From a virus (lineage: Duplodnaviria; Caudoviricetes): 33,061 nt of DNA. The DNA is taken from positions 1-33,061 of the IMG/VR virus record IMGVR_UViG_3300032315_000710; one strand, given 5' to 3'. Below, one piece after another: positions 26,828 to 33,061 of this stretch (position 1 is its first letter; each line of letters begins with the position of its first letter). The translations under genes were made by a program, and so were the position numbers. The notes under the pieces were generated by a model, which searched no databases, was not told the DNA's origin, and was given only the letters and a program-made list of their open reading frames with translations.

Positions 26828-26913
26828 GAGTAATATGTAGTGCAAATTGACGAAAAGTTGAAAAACTAGCCGTTAAAATGCACTGTTTGAAACCAGGACT
26901 AAATAAACATACT

Positions 26914-27057
26914 ATGATTACTAACCGTTCGATATCGCTGAAACAGCATGACACCAGACTTTGGGGACAACTCTCCGTGTTGGGTCAAGTTGCATTGGCA
27001 TATCCGACAGATATTCGCAGTGCCTTTAATTCAATGGAAGGGGTACCGGGTGGATAA
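26914..27057 (+). CDS. 47-aa possible leader peptide
   Basis: MITNRSISLKQHDTRLWGQLSVLGQVALAYPTDIRSAFNSMEGVPGG after TAAATA; followed by a terminator-like hairpin. Confidence 0.45.
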   Translation: MITNRSISLKQHDTRLWGQLSVLGQVALAYPTDIRSAFNSMEGVPGG

Positions 27058-27088
27058 GTAAACATAGTTATAAACATGTTTATTTTGC

Positions 27089-27123: not shown

Positions 27124-27348
27124 AGTAAGAGGCATAAATCTCTTACAGTTAGGGTGAGAGACCTAACAAAAGTGCAAGTCGGAACGAGGCTGCAAAGCAC
27201 TATAAAAAAAGAACGGGCGGTGATAGGGATGAAATCTGCGGAGAGAACGCAGAGAGTAAAAACTTTCAGTGAGGAACATTATGATTCCTCGCAAGCGGGC
27301 AAGTCCGAAATGCCGGACAACATAGTCTCGCTTGTCAACAAAAGGCTA

Positions 27349-27439
27349 ACCATTTATTATTTAAGAACATGAGAGAAGAACATTAGCCCCGGGCTGCGAA
27401 CCCGGTTGCGCCCTCTACTGTTCTTTAATAATGAATGGT
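27349..27439 (+). ncRNA. Long-stem-closed RNA cassette A
   Basis: ACCATTTATTATTTAAGAACA / TGTTCTTTAATAATGAATGGT imperfect stem enclosing a CCGGG-ctgcgaa-CCCGG hairpin. Confidence 0.55.
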
Positions 27440-27471: not shown

Positions 27472-27554
27472 GCTGCTGTAGTTCAGTCCGACGTAAGAAC
27501 ATCACGCTAATAATGTGAAGGTCACGAGGGTCGTATGCCTCGTCAGCGGCACCA
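27472..27554 (+). tRNA. Atypical tRNA-Ile(AAT)
   Basis: GCTGCTG/CAGCGGC-A-CCA; TCACG-CTAATAA-TGTGA; enlarged D loop and non-canonical T loop. Confidence 0.6.
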
Positions 27555-28054: not shown

Positions 28055-28337
28055 TTCTCAATAGTGTAAAGGAAAAATCCTAGTAGCTATGGTGAAAGAG
28101 TATTTGGAACATTGCTAATAAAATCTAGAGTAATATCACACAGTAGCAAACGCAAAGGCTTAAAAAACTGTGAGCCGGGGAAGAGCCGGACAGGCTTTGT
28201 GATATGGAATAGTGCTGAAAACAATGCTAAGAGTATTTGAGTAGTCATATTGAAACGATGAAGTACGTGGTAACACTCCGGCATAGCATTTGCGTTTGGA
28301 GCCGGAATTGTTGGTTCAAGCCCAACTTGAGAAGCCA
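28055..28337 (+). ncRNA. 283-nt tRNA-framed RNA (Gln-like acceptor, D and T arms) with ~200-nt D-loop insertion and 18-nt anticodon loop
   Basis: TTCTCAA/TTGAGAA-G-CCA, GTGT/ACAC D stem, GTTGG-TTCAAGC-CCAAC T arm, TCCGGC/GCCGGA stem. Confidence 0.7.
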
Positions 28338-28419
28338 AAATACTATGGAGCCGTATACACGGTAAGGTTCGATCACTTCACTGGTGTTTAGTGTGATTGG
28401 CTGCTCCGCCCAATTTTAT

Positions 28420-28496
28420 GCTCGCGTATCTCAGCCAGATAGAGCATCAGATTACGAATCTGCGGGTCAGAGGTTCAAATCCTGCTCCCGCACCCA
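28420..28496 (+). pseudogene. Degenerate copy of tRNA-Arg(ACG)
   Basis: Close to 27808-27884 up to the T loop, but acceptor strands no longer pair. Confidence 0.7.
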
Positions 28497-28928: not shown

Positions 28929-29603
28929 CTATATCGGGGAGTAAGTCAGCGGTAGACGTTTTGGTTTGGGACCGGGAGGTTGTTCGCCCCACGCTCTCTC
29001 TAAACAAAACCAACATTTACCACAGGGTAGTTGACCGTAATCGGTACTACAACTTTTGGTCAGCGGGTAAACTGACTCTGTTATACCTTGTTCTAGATAT
29101 ATACCATATATGTCCTGTTTGGTTAAATTTGTCAGCGGCCTATATTGCCCGTTCCAACTCAAAGGACGTGTAACCAACGGCGATCTGGTTCTTTCGTATA
29201 AAAATTCAAACCGGTCGATGCCCTGTATATCAGTAGCAGATGGGTTACAATTGGTGCCGTATAATACGGATTTCACAATTTGTTGATGGTAGAGCATCTT
29301 GTCAGGTAGTAGGTTAATACTGCTGCTGCCTTCGGCGTCGGAGTTACACACCGACATGTGCTGTATAACATTATAATTGTTAGTCAATCGACAAATCTCT
29401 GATAATACGTCAGCACAAACTTTGTGTTGACACAGATTTCGCTGAACGGTACTGATAGTGAACAAGTGTATTTCTGTATCTTTTATTTGGTCTAATACCA
29501 AATATGCTAGTAAAGAACTATCAACACCGCCGGAAAAGCTAATACCTATAGCACCTGAAGGCAGTTCTAATGTGATATCGTTGTTTATGACTAGATGATG
29601 CAT
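28929..29603 (-). CDS. QueC-like (7-cyano-7-deazaguanine synthase family) PP-loop protein
   Basis: ISFSGGVDSSLL PP-loop, P....TKQDI, T.SC-x8-CGKCWFC.ER zinc motif; TAAATA 5 nt upstream of ATG. Confidence 0.8.
   Translation of the reverse strand: MHHLVINNDITLELPSGAIGISFSGGVDSSLLAYLVLDQIKDTEIHLFTISTVQRNLCQHKVCADVLSEICRLTNNYNVIQHMSVCNSDAEGSSSINLLPDKMLYHQQIVKSVLYGTNCNPSATDIQGIDRFEFLYERTRSPLVTRPLSWNGQYRPLTNLTKQDIYGIYLEQGITESVYPLTKSCSTDYGQLPCGKCWFCLERAWGEQPPGPKPKRLPLTYSPI
28935..28980 (+). pseudogene. 5' part of tRNA-Pro(TGG), truncated before the T arm
   Basis: CGGGGAG-TA-AGTC-AGCGGTA-GAC...TT-TGG-GA; no T arm or 3' acceptor strand. Confidence 0.65.
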
Positions 29604-29862: not shown

Positions 29863-29867
29863 AAAAC

Positions 29868-29979
29868 ATGCAGGCTAGACGAACGTTACCGGTGGTGGAA
29901 CTTGGTATACACATCTGGTGATGAGCCAGACTTTGCTTAGGCATTTGCGGGTTCGAATCCCGTCCTACCTAGACTGCAT
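29868..29979 (+). ncRNA. Leu-like tRNA body without CCA, closed by a different terminal stem
   Basis: GTGGAA..GGTATACAC D arm, TCTGG-TGATGAG-CCAGA, V-arm, GCGGG-TTCGAAT-CCCGT; ends ATGCAGGCTAG/CTAGACTGCAT. Confidence 0.6.
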
Positions 29980-29983
29980 TTTT

Positions 29984-30119
29984 TATTTTTGGAGTTTCTC
30001 GTGTGTTTGGATCACTGTCGGTCGGCAGAAACGATATGCAGACAGGTGAATCGCAAAGAGAGAGTGTTCGACCAACGCAGGATGGAGAAAAACAATCACG
30101 ACCATCGGCTCCAAAAGTA
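29984..30119 (+). ncRNA. Stem-closed structured RNA B with possible pseudoknot
   Basis: TTTTGGAGT/GCTCCAAAA closing stem; internal GGTCG complementary to hairpin loop CGACC. Confidence 0.5.
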
Positions 30120-30143
30120 TTTTTATTTGAGGTCATATTTCGG

Positions 30144-30172
30144 TTGACTTTGGGTAGAGTATCGTCTACATT
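30144..30172 (+). promoter_or_regulatory. Internal sigma70-type promoter
   Basis: TTTCGG-TTGACT-N17-TACATT. Confidence 0.7.
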
Positions 30173-30183
30173 AAGAAAATAGA

Positions 30184-30218
30184 GAGAGCAGCGATGTTGT
30201 CTCGTTCTTTGACATTGT
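30184..30218 (+). promoter_or_regulatory. rrn-like antitermination leader (boxB-like hairpin + boxA)
   Basis: GAGAgCAGC-gat-GTTGTCTC hairpin then CGTTCTTTGACATTGT, just after the promoter. Confidence 0.65.
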
Positions 30219-30242
30219 TAAAAATAACAAGTCTCTTATGAG

Positions 30243-30356
30243 ACTTGTTAGATGAATGCTACGTTGAGCCACCCAAAGGCTCATAACCGTACAAAGGTTT
30301 ATGTGGGTTCGATTCCCACGTGCGGGGTTTGGGAACGTAGTATTCTTCTAACAAGT
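30243..30356 (+). ncRNA. Long-stem-closed tRNA-like cassette C
   Basis: ACTTGTTAGATGAATGCTACGTT / AACGTAGTATTCTTCTAACAAGT; three internal hairpins including GTGGG-TTCGATT-CCCAC. Confidence 0.7.
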
Positions 30357-30361
30357 ATCGT

Positions 30362-30495
30362 ATGATCTGGTGTTCTTAGAAAGGGAGTTCCTGTTAAGTG
30401 GCGAACTCTTTACTCTGACTAGTACAGAGAGGATAGGTCAGTATCCTAGGGAAGTGCAATTCTTCCAAACTCTCTTTCTAAGAACATCAGGTTAT
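30362..30495 (+). ncRNA. Long-stem-closed cassette D
   Basis: 28-bp continuous stem (with G:U); internal hairpins ending in GGAAG-TGCAATT-CTTCC. Confidence 0.7.
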
Positions 30496-30499
30496 CAAG

Positions 30500-30612
30500 T
30501 CAAGACAAAGTAGGCCCTAAAGCTCTTTGTCCCGCCCTCGCAAGCGGATATAGAATGGTTTAGGACATTCTATGCAGGATCGTTCCCTGCCGAGGGTATA
30601 TCTTTGTTCTGA
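30500..30612 (+). ncRNA. Stem-closed cloverleaf-like cassette E
   Basis: ACAAAG/CTTTGT and GCCCT/AGGGT closure; hairpins CCGC/GCGG, ATAGAATG/CATTCTAT, GCAGG-ATCGTTC-CCTGC. Confidence 0.55.
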
Positions 30613-30746
30613 ATTGTGTGTTTCCCGGGATAAACACAGTCAGGACAACATCGGTCGATGTTGCCACCGTGTCATCGCTGATGTAAAATAAGCGTATAGC
30701 TATATGTGACGAGCGCGTAGCAGTTAACGGTGGCCTGAAATCCCTT

Positions 30747-30849
30747 ATGAATTTATTAGATGAACACTATATCCGATCGTAAAATCTTCCCGCCTAGTGC
30801 TTGATTGCGGGGACTGGGAGTCCCGCTAGTGTTCTTCTAATAAATTTAT
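30747..30849 (+). ncRNA. Long-stem-closed cassette F
   Basis: ATGAATTTATTAGATGAACACTA / TAGTGTTCTTCTAATAAATTTAT (22 bp + one U:U). Confidence 0.7.
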
Positions 30850-30923
30850 GATGCTCAACAGTCGAGGGACTGAGCCGATGAATTTCGGTCGAGCCTGAGT
30901 TCGACTCTCAGGGTGCATCACCA
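30850..30923 (+). ncRNA. Aberrant CCA-ended tRNA-like RNA
   Basis: GATGC/GCATC-A-CCA, CAGTC-GAGG-GACTG in place of D arm, GCCGA-TGAATT-TCGGT, CCTGAG-TTCGACT-CTCAGG. Confidence 0.55.
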
Positions 30924-31009
30924 GTTTTCGGCTAAGACTGATCATCTTAGTTCGGATAGTCCAAAGCAAGCACCACTGGTACCTGATCAGTATTCATGCG
31001 CTAGCTTTT

Positions 31010-31081
31010 GCTTCGTTCGTCTATCGGAGAGGACACTGGCCTTGGGGCCGGAAAGATGGGTTCGATTCCCATACGAAGGTT
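31010..31081 (+). pseudogene. Glu-like tRNA body with 6-nt anticodon loop, no CCA
   Basis: CTTCGT/ACGAAG, GTCT..GGAC D arm, CTGGC-CTTGGG-GCCGG, ATGGG-TTCGATT-CCCAT. Confidence 0.55.
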
Positions 31082-31100
31082 CGGCTATTTACATATTAAT

Positions 31101-31176
31101 GCTCCTGTAGCTCAGTTGGTAGAGCACCTGACTGAAGATCAGGGTGTCGTCGGTTCGATTCCGTCTGGGAGCACCA
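31101..31176 (+). tRNA. tRNA-Phe(GAA)
   Basis: CCTGA-CTGAAGA-TCAGG, ACCA. Confidence 0.9.
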
Positions 31177-31224
31177 TAATTTTTCTTTGTTGGTATCAGC
31201 AGAGTAAATACATCATACTACTAT

Positions 31225-31310
31225 GCGGATGTGGCGGAATTGGTAGACGCCCCAGTTTTAGGTACTGGTATCGTAATGGTGTGGGGGTTCGAGTCCCTTC
31301 ATCCGCACCA
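31225..31310 (+). tRNA. tRNA-Leu(TAG)
   Basis: Canonical Leu D arm, V-arm, A73. Confidence 0.93.
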
Positions 31311-31391
31311 AAATTCAGAAATAGCAAGAACCCATGAAACTGTTTTAGCGATGAAACAGCGGAGGCTGTTATTTCTGATACGATGTCGTGG

Positions 31392-32033
31392 CTAAAGCTG
31401 CAAGGTGTACCTTGAATTGCCCTCGTTAAAGACAGCTAGTACATCTATATCTCGAAAAAGAGTAGGGTAATCAAAATTTTCTTTTTTTGAAAAGGATTTG
31501 AGCCCTTTAAACCTAAACTGATATTTAGGATATGGGTCATCGTCTCTGTTTTCTAGAGTTAACAACTCACCGGGAAATACTTTGAACCATTCTCCTTGTA
31601 TAGACAGCAAGTTAGTAAGTCTGGCAGTGTATTCAGGTATTTGGTCTTCTTCTAGAATTATAACTTCAGTAGTGTCTCGGTTTCTACCCCAATTAAGAGT
31701 TTTTCGTGCGATCATCTGACTTACTACTTGTGACTTGTAGTCTAACCTAACTGTATAGTACAATTTGCTAGATTGCTTAAACACTTCTTTTAGTAAATCC
31801 ACAGAATAATGATATATCCTTAATAAGTCTGTAACATGAAGTTTTATTAAAATATCCTTATTCTGTGACATACATAGAATTTCATTGACTCGCGCAATAT
31901 ATTCTTCGGAACTTGAGTTATTCCTGTGTTCAAGCATGACTTCACCTAGGTTCAGAACACCTAATTCATCAGCGATTGTTCCTGCTGCGGATGTGCTGCC
32001 GGAACGAGGATTAGAAATGATTGTATACAACAT
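31392..32033 (-). CDS. Sulfotransferase-like (Stf0/P-loop type) protein
   Basis: Start ATG at 32033 (TAAATA 5 nt upstream); ISNPRSGST 5'-PSB-like loop, LGE, IKLH, R.D...QVVS..IA. Confidence 0.7.
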   Translation of the reverse strand: MLYTIISNPRSGSTSAAGTIADELGVLNLGEVMLEHRNNSSSEEYIARVNEILCMSQNKDILIKLHVTDLLRIYHYSVDLLKEVFKQSSKLYYTVRLDYKSQVVSQMIARKTLNWGRNRDTTEVIILEEDQIPEYTARLTNLLSIQGEWFKVFPGELLTLENRDDDPYPKYQFRFKGLKSFSKKENFDYPTLFRDIDVLAVFNEGNSRYTLQL

Positions 32034-32071
32034 ATCTGTATTTAGTACACAACACACTTTAAGTAAGTTAT

Positions 32072-32157
32072 GCCCCGATGGTGGAATCGGTAGACGCGGG
32101 AGACTCAAAATCTCTTGCCCAAAAGGCGTGGGGGTTCAAGTCCCTCTCGGGGCACCA
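32072..32157 (+). tRNA. tRNA-Leu(CAA)
   Basis: Canonical; loop CT-CAA-AA. Confidence 0.93.
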
Positions 32158-32167
32158 GCTGATTCAC

Positions 32168-32243
32168 GGGTCCTTAGCTCAGTTGGTAGAGCATCTGACT
32201 TTTAATCAGATTGTCGCGGGTTCGAACCCCGCAGGACCCTCCA
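32168..32243 (+). tRNA. tRNA-Lys(TTT)
   Basis: TCTGA-CTTTTAA-TCAGA; U73 discriminator. Confidence 0.92.
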
Positions 32244-32246
32244 AGT

Positions 32247-32344
32247 TTACAACGTGGTGTAATGGTAGCACAGGAAGTCCGAGAGTCGTAATGATGGGTA
32301 GGCAGCAAGATGCCAGGATGCGGGTTCGATTCCCGGCGTTGTAA
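32247..32344 (+). ncRNA. tRNA-like RNA with remodelled anticodon region, no CCA
   Basis: TTACAACG/CGTTGTAA, GTGT-AATGGTA-GCAC D arm, CGGG-TTCGATT-CCCG T arm, ~50-nt middle without a canonical anticodon arm. Confidence 0.6.
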
Positions 32345-32350
32345 TTAAGT

Positions 32351-32538
32351 TTGTAGTGGGTGTTGGAAGTATTAGTCACAGAGCCTAGGCTGGCCAGTTG
32401 AATCTCTGTAAAGGATGACGGTTCAAGTACGCATCATGGCAACCATCTGACGATGACTTCAACAACGAACCCAACTGACCGGCGCTTATAATTGGTCGAT
32501 AATGCCGCTGATGTTGTGGATCAGCGGGCCCACTACAA
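32351..32538 (+). ncRNA. ~190-nt multi-stem pseudoknotted RNA (manA-motif-like candidate)
   Basis: TTGTAGTGGG/CCCACTACAA closure; TGTTGgAAGT/ACTTCAACA; loop segments CAGTTG and GGTTC complementary to GAACC-CAACTG. Confidence 0.7.
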
Positions 32539-32545
32539 TTCAATT

Positions 32546-32619
32546 GCCCTGTTAGTTAAATGGTAGAACGACTGTTTCGTAATCAGTAGGCGGCAGTTCG
32601 ATTCTGCCACAGGGCACCA
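32546..32619 (+). tRNA. tRNA-Thr(CGT)
   Basis: Loop TT-CGT-AA, ACCA. Confidence 0.9.
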
Positions 32620-32624
32620 AGTTT

Positions 32625-32718
32625 GCTCCCTTAGTTTAGCGGTAAAACACCTGGCTTATATCCAGCATCGTCTCCAGATTAGAGAGCGTCACAGGTTCGA
32701 ATCCTGTAGGGAGTACCA
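32625..32718 (+). tRNA. tRNA with TAT anticodon (Ile-AUA reader?) and long variable arm
   Basis: GCTCCCT/AGGGAGT-A-CCA, CTGG-CTTATAT-CCAG, V-arm TCTC-cagatta-GAGA. Confidence 0.75.
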
Positions 32719-32848
32719 AACTTGTTAGATGAACACTGTTCGGGTAGAAACTAGACTAGTGAAGTCATATTGCCGCTTCTTCAGTAACTAGTGAGGGTTC
32801 GAGTCCCTAAGGCGGCTTCGTTTCTTACAGTGTTCTTCTAAACAGTTT
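32718..32848 (+). ncRNA. Long-stem-closed cassette G
   Basis: TTAGATGAACACTGT / ACAGTGTTCTTCTAA; internal AGGG-TTCGAGT-CCCT; GCCGCTT/AGGCGGC complementarity. Confidence 0.7.
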
Positions 32849-32851
32849 ATT

Positions 32852-32937
32852 GCCTAGGTGGTGGAATGGTAGACACGCAACGTTGAGGTCGTTGTGGACG
32901 AAAGTCCGTGAAAGTTCGAGTCTTTTCTTGGGCACCA
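32852..32937 (+). tRNA. tRNA-Leu(GAG)
   Basis: CAACG-TTGAGGT-CGTTG, V-arm GGAC-GAAA-GTCC. Confidence 0.92.
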
Positions 32938-33042
32938 ATTTTTTCAAAACTAATAGATTATTTATAGATTTTGGTTGCACTAAGTCCAATCATAGTGTAT
33001 ATAATATAGACAGTCTAAATATGATAATACATAGGAGTTAAT

Positions 33043-33061
33043 CATGGCGGTACTAGCCTTA
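33043..33061 (+). CDS. Start of a gene truncated by the window end (MAVLAL...)
   Basis: AGGAG SD then ATG. Confidence 0.5.

Follow-up and report, generated by a model that had tools for sequence, protein, structure and literature searches.

What are the long-stemmed elements that stand between the tRNA genes of a tailed-phage genome fragment, and what might the stem that they share be for? The DNA in question (hereafter the window: the whole stretch analysed, 33,061 nucleotides (nt) of IMG/VR virus record IMGVR_UViG_3300032315_000710) was described in an earlier note as carrying a family of RNA cassettes in which one conserved stem clamps varied tRNA-like cargo, with the stem serving as a processing or protein-binding handle. 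By sequence comparison, three of these elements (cassettes C, D and G) belong to a real RNA family of phage tRNA arrays that is absent from Rfam; the helix is a conserved, covarying, strand-specific 23-base-pair (bp) RNA duplex of such arrays, often ending just before a tRNA, and the inserts that it encloses form conserved families and swap at one slot. As to function, on balance we favour a stalk that would be processed by host RNase III and used repeatedly in one long phage tRNA transcript.

Results

The cassettes of the window, with two looser relatives and one weak candidate, are as follows.

30240..30359, + strand (30243-30356 in the earlier note): cassette C, family helix, 68-nt insert, T-arm at 30303-30319; predicted cuts after 30252/30348, or after 30250/30350
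30747..30849, + strand: cassette D, family helix, insert of 57 nt lacking a T-arm; predicted cuts after 30760/30837, or 30758/30839
32718..32848, + strand: cassette G, family helix beginning on the CCA of a tRNA-Ile, 87-nt insert resembling a mini-tRNA, T-arm at 32793-32809; predicted cuts after 32729/32838, or after 32727/32840
27349..27439, + strand: cassette A, looser family relative, 27-bp stem with U:U, upstream of the array's first tRNA-Gln
30362..30495, + strand: cassette E, looser relative, 28-bp near-perfect stem with the GTTCTT/AAGAAC half-site inverted, T-arm at 30450-30466
30500..30612, + strand: F, weak candidate, folded RNA that lacks the family motif and is closed by a short stem

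As the earlier note had it, C, D and G are closed by helices (22-23 bp) with the common core TTAGATGAA/TTCTTCTAA and a U:U pair, next to which TGCT/AGTA in one cassette and CACT/AGTG in another form a compensatory change, and their inserts are indeed unrelated. The four longest inverted repeats between 26.5 and 33 kb are C, E, A and D, G being the seventh. Scored on their closing stems, the elements reach 25.2 (E), 23.1 (C), 21.1 (D), 18.8 (A), 14.5 (G) and, for a further proposed element, H (29984-30119), 10.9; the highest score among 30 dinucleotide shuffles was 16.1, and that in coding DNA of the window 13.5. Taken alone, the score of G falls in the shuffle range, but G has the family motif. 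Folding z-scores are -7.25 (E), -6.95 (C), -5.82 (A), -5.50 (D), -2.99 (G), -2.50 (F) and -1.98 (H).

For the other proposed members the picture is mixed. A and E do share the GAACA/TGTTC core ascribed to them, its inverted orientation in E having been overlooked. F is a weak member, without motif and with a modest z-score, yet 98% conserved in L167/L168 (L-numbers denote related loci, G-numbers phage records). H, credited with the same architecture, drops out: its stem score lies in the chance range, and it has neither the motif nor a homolog among the related loci. Within the window, a covariance model of C/D/G-type stems finds C, D and G only; it matches the A copy of L133 (E 2.7e-4) and not the window's A, and A-type stems of altered sequence precede the first tRNA-Gln in eight syntenic loci (L123, L126, L127, L129, L131-L134) and in G001. 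The T-arm near the 3' end, previously assigned to C, D, E and G, is present in C, E and G by a stem-plus-loop test and absent from A, D, F and H. An Rfam scan of the window places no family on any reported cassette, and ARAGORN and Rfam make no tRNA call on A, C, D, E, F, G or H.

Beyond the window, the family amounts to 49 distinct elements at 40 loci (some from the same or near-identical contigs) with 37 clusters of unrelated inserts. Scans used two tight patterns on IMG/VR (24 loci), metagenomes (27), a C-type pattern (64), GTDB (51), a loose pattern (120) and syntenic positions (14), and pairing continues beyond the search pattern in 22/24 tight, 24/27 metagenome, 28/64 C-type, 1/51 GTDB, 1/120 loose and 0/14 syntenic loci. 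The filter favours pairing but, as these pass rates show, does not create it; this extended-stem filter excluded G of the window plus loci L143 and L157. The loose-pattern scan, mostly chance with one real locus in 120, was discarded as evidence for the family.

All 24 tight-pattern IMG/VR loci have 3-22 tRNAs on the element's strand, and over the whole family a same-strand tRNA lies within 700 nt of 48/49 elements, an opposite-strand tRNA of 0/49. G.U pairs number 54 as against five A.C pairs, which indicates that the structure is RNA on the tRNA strand. When 34 elements are aligned, 96.4% of cells pair and two-sided change is seen at 12 of 21 pairs, a result reached by 0/500 shuffles, with slid controls at 38-48%. 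So the proposal of a shared stem kept with covariation around exchangeable inserts in related phages is borne out. Covariance-model sites number three in G001, one each in G002 and G003, at least six in G006 and none in G007, and in whole-record scans the sites of G001, G002 and G006 all fall within tRNA islands.

Rfam places no family on a cassette in 20 related loci, where the sole trace is a 15-bit tmRNA fragment on a C-type T-arm, and among 50,697 GenBank phages (T4-like ones included) positions 29900-33061 match tRNAs only, the C block finding nothing and D short chance hits. An exact C-insert pattern returned 0 viral loci, C homologs having been found through other scans. Candidates such as attC sites, CRISPR repeats and HDV-like or pistol ribozymes were rejected on wrong part order and the lack of an Rfam hit. 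We found no printed description of the family in a literature search whose coverage stopped short of subscription papers; four stem motifs are absent from six supplementary files of PMC10690425, of which three further files, outside the search, may list single members. The family is thus apparently undescribed in print. Long stems at L160 17894-18060, L164 11451-11617 and L142 2443-2609 share only the outer AGACTT-type end, differ in the inner half, have no U:U and may form a sister family.

Where do the cassettes stand with respect to the tRNAs? With the C of TCTTC as origin, 24/49 elements have the start of the next called tRNA 11-13 nt on, and 26/49 have it 11-15 nt on. Within the window a tRNA-Leu starts 13 nt after G, and 12 nt after D comes an uncalled cloverleaf that ends on CCA and has a 93% homolog in L183.

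30850..30922, + strand: atypical CCA-ending tRNA-like gene directly 3' of D, cloverleaf fold, missed by ARAGORN and Rfam
32852..32937, + strand: tRNA-Leu(GAG); the 3' arm of cassette G forms its 5' leader

A CCA just upstream, as in G, is absent from 36/49 elements, so that CCA anchoring is not general. Three elements start 4-5 nt and two 25-27 nt downstream of a GOLLD RNA, and in G006 four cassettes follow back to back ahead of a tRNA-Met. The GOLLD RNAs directly upstream of cassettes in L269, L255, L233, L178 and L198 have an embedded tRNA, and a manA RNA hit is seen in a cassette-bearing array (L203 174-346).

As for the inserts, L167/L168 have the window's leader, arms and downstream E, but a different insert in the C slot, while L170/L171 contain the C insert (97%) plus one additional cassette. 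Certain inserts recur: C in L170 and G006, E in seven IMG/VR loci, G in L157 (98%) and further ones on various contigs; in the L158/L136/L248 family, pairs within the insert change on both sides. A T-arm is found in 12/37 insert clusters (shuffled mean 0.18), 11 of these with a D-loop-like motif; the other two thirds are not tRNA-like, so 'diverse tRNA mimics' is not supported as a rule for the family. As a group, inserts alone fold no better than shuffles (median z -0.29, 9/37 below -1.5), and 29/37 clusters are singletons. In the C insert two pseudoknot pairings are predicted (loop CCCAAA with TTTGGG, and CCGTAC with GTGCGG), and the C homolog of G006 keeps both partners while hairpin 2 and the T-loop change; this suggests a double pseudoknot, a fold proposed here without covariation. 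The E insert is cloverleaf-like, with AGTGG and complementary loops CTGAC and GTCAG that could kiss; CTGAC is kept in 5/5 variants while the stem changes, and GTCAG was part of the search pattern. RNAalifold reports no pair with two-sided change (0) over five E inserts, in which the changes noted by eye sit in a poorly aligned stem.

The helix itself, numbered from the G of GATGA, pairs from -11 to +11 over the 37 clusters, so about 22 bp are formed by the flanks of the enclosed RNA. At outer positions beyond all search patterns there is A-U at -10 in 32/37 clusters and G.U at -9 in 21/37, and at inner positions likewise beyond them U.G at +10 in 14/37 (C-G in nine more) and U-A at +11 in 18/37. 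The family consensus would therefore have a UA/UG distal box at both helix ends, 22 bp apart. For Escherichia coli RNase III, the literature describes a distal box of UA/UG in which the wobble is strictly needed, with two boxes 22 bp apart, and a requirement for A-U or U-A at the position designated pb2, while G-C at pb4 permits binding and blocks cutting (PMC1540722, PMC3867540); pb4 of T7 R1.1 is U:C (PMC1540722, PMC3867540). We placed the boxes on the helix using the published pair numbers plus the general layout of R1.1.

In the preferred register (GA^U in the 5' arm, UC^U in the 3' arm) both halves agree with these rules and the U:U lies at pb4, beside the predicted cut; A-U at pb2 and a pb4 other than G-C are found on both halves in 37/37 clusters, at positions that the search patterns fix. 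Rule scores average 6.3/8 in this register and at most 4.2 in ten others, the best-register mean (6.32) standing against 4.86 +/- 0.09 in pair-shuffled stems; one member scores 8/8, as do 3/20,000 shuffles. A second register, two nt further out, fits the weak linear consensus for RNase III sites (PMC4357697) with a mean of 12.9/16 (D 15, G 16, C 11) and puts G-C at pb4. Searches of five phage records each found no RNase III gene and no double-stranded RNA-binding domain (dsRBD) gene in the carrier phages, G007 being uninformative on carriers since it has no match to the covariance model (R1). A Ro60/TROVE gene was found in 0/10 phage records (three of them at least 90% complete) and in none of the 26 window proteins scanned, the window being a fragment. 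That no phage RNase III, dsRBD or Ro60 gene turned up implies a host enzyme.

Upstream of the C-E-F block lies a leader with three parts.

30144..30172, + strand: sigma-70-like promoter TTGACT-17-TACATT ahead of the C-E-F block (9/12 consensus, not significant alone)
30182..30203, + strand: small hairpin with a GNRA loop, in boxB-like position directly 5' of boxA
30204..30214, + strand: boxA-like element GTTCTTTGACA, after the promoter-like site and the GNRA hairpin and before cassette C

The promoter-like site is kept upstream of boxA in relatives, and a similar hairpin precedes boxA in L124, L137, L160, L164, L167, L173 and G006. The element GTTCTTTGACA occurs on the tRNA strand in 13/18 sources checked (some overlapping), twice in G006, once there about 110 nt ahead of the C homolog. 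At 30204 it is identical in 16/18 nt to the boxA of a Sphingobium rRNA leader, its core is also found in a Chitinophaga rRNA spacer, and its predicted unpaired probability is 0.42. In rRNA leaders boxA follows a small hairpin and loads NusB:S10 (PMC13753749), and the 30204 element is likely to be such a NusB/S10 loading site. With this conserved promoter-hairpin-boxA leader (30144-30214) upstream, the array appears to copy the logic of rRNA operons. A boxA query on plasmids gave chance hits and was dropped.

The window as a whole, to judge from its gene content (nrdA/nrdB, glutaredoxin, PAAR and LamG-domain genes in 33 kb), is a fragment of a large tailed phage. Its tRNA array occupies the + strand from about 26.8 kb to the window end, where ARAGORN makes 17 calls and 19 tRNA hits exceed the gathering score of Rfam. 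Further structured elements lie within it. A closed element at 26900-27085 heads the array, is found at the same place in L121-L124, L126, L127, L132-L134 and L157, and has no Rfam hit. The RNA at 27205-27345, just 5' of cassette A, is 75-99% conserved in L123, L124, L126, L127, L132-L134, L157 and L170; one of its hairpin loops is complementary to a segment near the 3' end (a possible pseudoknot), it likewise has no Rfam hit, and a single low-depth contig of RNA run X1 covers part of it. At 28056-28338 a tRNA-shaped gene combines acceptor stem, T-arm and CCA with some 200 additional nt, and at 29865-29985 a tRNA-like RNA without CCA (homologs in L126, L136 and L137) has a canonical T-arm and an extended closing stem. 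A 190-nt multi-hairpin RNA at 32350-32540, closed by a 10-bp stem, is 74-94% conserved in L136, L147, L167, L170 and others and has no Rfam hit. The array also has atypical or degenerate tRNAs at 27472-27551, 28420-28492, 28929-29000, 31010-31080 and 32248-32344, which ARAGORN or Rfam overlooks or calls only weakly. Two protein genes run antisense (minus strand) within the array (28929-29603 and 31392-32108): one open reading frame is QueC/PP-loop-like and the other, of 238 amino acids, has no Pfam hit and a start that we take to resemble a sulfotransferase P-loop. Related phages also have tRNAs with a CUA anticodon, resembling amber suppressors (L128 4658, L130 981, L131 4318, L135 5230, L143 1834, L159 11380).

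On the host we can offer a weak guess at an alphaproteobacterium. For NrdA the nearest match (58%) is with Xanthomonas and Ralstonia phages, and peroxiredoxin homologs come without taxa and give no host signal. Two candidate clues were rejected. The single real GTDB locus (1/51), a 1195-bp tRNA/GOLLD contig in a Rickettsiales metagenome-assembled genome, is probably a binned phage piece, and a Sphingobium 16S stalk beginning GATGAA like the phage stalk occurs in one of five operons and may be chance, R1 having 0 hits in those five loci.

Discussion

RNase III processing, which the earlier note had raised, is the leading role for the stem and draws its support from the agreement of the family's geometry with published E. 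coli rules. E. coli RNase III takes part in maturation of phage T4 tRNAs (PMC4810235), and the inverted half-site of E would be tolerated because the enzyme is twofold-symmetric. Several points weigh against such a role. In the preferred register, C, D and G of the window reach 5, 4 and 6 of 8, about the level of shuffled stems, and at either end of their helices the distal-box wobble of the family consensus is absent. The A-type set, which was not selected by pattern, is borderline (5.33 versus 4.98, P 0.055), and E together with three other stems is null (P 0.5). Being of common ancestry, the 37 stems come close to one observation, the score was chosen after the data had been seen, and pb2 and pb4 lie inside the search patterns. 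On the linear consensus random helices reach 14/16 in 7-8% of trials and 16/16 in 0.4%, and mapped E. coli RNase III sites are reported to fit the consensus poorly (PMC5371410). Distal boxes, according to PMC3867540, are not conserved across species, so the rules are those of E. coli and may not be those of the phage's host. Two cut registers are compatible with the helix, both of them predictions, and the sequence of the stem looks more tightly conserved than RNase III sites usually require. RNA run X1, consisting of contigs only (0.06 of words) and leaving 29.1-31.0 kb uncovered save for one thin bin, is evidence neither way. With these points taken into account, we still regard the RNase III stalk as the probable function, if by no wide measure of certainty.

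How might such a stalk work? NusB/S10 would load at boxA and shield the untranslated array from Rho termination. RNase III would then cut both arms, most likely at GA^U in the 5' arm and UC^U in the 3' arm, whereupon a leader of 11-13 nt would stay on the downstream tRNA for RNase P, a short tail would be left on the RNA upstream (be it a tRNA, a GOLLD or a further cassette), and the insert would be released as a small RNA retaining the inner 9-10 bp. The conserved arms may also allow inserts to be exchanged by recombination. Circularisation of the product was considered and found no consistent support (RtcB in 1/5, a T4 Rnl1-type ligase in 2/5 records).

Among alternatives, the one that survives best, unlikely though we consider it, leaves the helix intact: the whole stem would terminate a mature RNA of 100-160 nt, its ends set free by RNase P cleavage at the next tRNA and, upstream, by 3' trimming, and would act as a protein handle, either by binding RNase III without being cut (a sponge) or by binding another double-stranded RNA binder of host or phage. 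In roughly half of the elements only a few nt separate the end of the 3' arm from the start of the next tRNA, so that RNase P alone could release that end, and the register favoured by the linear consensus (12.9/16) puts at pb4 the G-C that allows binding and blocks cutting. Up to four cassettes back to back in G006, and the invariance of U:U and nearby bases (in part a product of search design), would suit a handle as well. Set against this are the lack of a Ro60, dsRBD or RNase III gene in the records tested, the G.U pairs at twofold-symmetric positions, and the inverted half-site of E, more in keeping with a symmetric enzyme than with a directional handle.

A further alternative concerns the insert only and is compatible with RNase III cutting. 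Inserts could be decaying tRNA genes or filler, excised and degraded like the intervening sequences of 23S rRNA, with the stalk alone mattering. We find this rather doubtful. Group folding at shuffle level (median z -0.29; 9/37 below -1.5) and the predominance of single clusters (29/37) would be expected of filler; against it stand insert families that recur across phages with compensatory changes, T-arms in 12/37 clusters where shuffles average 0.18, and an E loop (CTGAC) retained in 5/5 variants despite changes in its stem.

Very improbable is a reading at the level of DNA, in which the arms bound a mobile or recombining module akin to a miniature inverted-repeat transposable element or attC and the RNA fold is incidental. 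It would account for inserts swapping at one slot in close relatives (L167 versus the window) and for tandem runs, but not for an orientation fixed with the tRNAs (48/49 same strand, 0 opposite), the G.U excess (54 versus 5 A.C), the fixed spacing to tRNA starts or the confinement of hits to tRNA islands in G001, G002 and G006. Finally, the earlier suggestion that the 3' arms are themselves boxA sites loading Nus factors can hardly be right: the 3' arm of A matches E. coli boxA at 10/12, a match that is lost in its syntenic homologs, but the arms of the 49 elements match at 6-9/12 (36/49 at 7 or below; C 6, D 7, G 8), the C arm is buried in the helix (unpaired probability 0.08) while NusB:NusE binds single-stranded boxA (PMC2800207), and a separate boxA is present at 30204.

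Returning to the RNase III stalk, a bolder view, which we consider unlikely, is that through the rRNA-operon mimic (promoter, boxA, repeated stalks) these phages express a library of dozens of unfamiliar structured RNAs in the form of tRNA-elbow mimics, pseudoknots and kissing-loop folds. Its members would be exchanged like accessory genes and would counter host tRNA-sensing or RNA-binding defences as decoys or aptamers. Should the stalk prove to be an RNase III site, every cassette would set the exact ends of a small RNA, and at least 37 new phage RNAs could be made and tested. It would also suggest how long untranslated tRNA/GOLLD islands are transcribed (via boxA) and cut up. Non-coding RNAs would then stand out as modular accessory genes that phages exchange, and the long-standing puzzle over the role of non-tRNA RNAs in such clusters would become testable. 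If only the stalk matters, the family is an undescribed yet modest processing signal.

How do the cassettes compare with known systems? Bacterial Y RNAs (YrlA) likewise join a long terminal stem to a tRNA-like module, here a T-arm found in a third of the inserts and standing first in two of them (L178, L203). The resemblance ends there: YrlA is most conserved in its interior and the phage cassettes in the stem, and the GNCGAAN0-1G motif near the YrlA 5' end (PMC4201824), a Ro60 gene, expected on the same strand within 4 kb, and an Rfam match are all wanting. With GNCGAA in 0/49 elements and TROVE in 0/10 records, the Y-RNA/Ro60 link drawn earlier is not supported; RF02553 (YrlA) has no match in the window, and its hits in 20 related loci reach just 23-25 bits against a gathering score of 69 and fall on tRNAs rather than cassettes. 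GOLLD RNA (RF02032) shares the setting, phage tRNA islands, and five cassettes lie 4-27 nt downstream of it in related loci; the window has no GOLLD, and the cassettes are small and fall outside the GOLLD model.

The tRNA cluster of phage T4 contains non-tRNA stable RNAs, species 1 and 2, and is not known to have a repeated stalk with exchangeable inserts. Common to both would be host RNase III acting on a phage tRNA polycistron (PMC4810235); the C block and D differ in having no sequence match to the 50,697 GenBank phages, T4-like ones among them. Closest in build are the RNase III stalks of rRNA operons and T7 R1.1, which share with the family consensus a helix of about 22 bp in which the sequences on either side of an enclosed RNA pair, together with distal boxes of the UA/UG type and an A-U pair at pb2, and rRNA operons moreover have the promoter-hairpin-boxA leader and interspersed tRNAs. 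What sets the phage arrays apart is that one near-identical stalk, its cleavage being predicted, is used one to six times per genome around at least 37 unrelated inserts of 44-103 nt that swap between phages.

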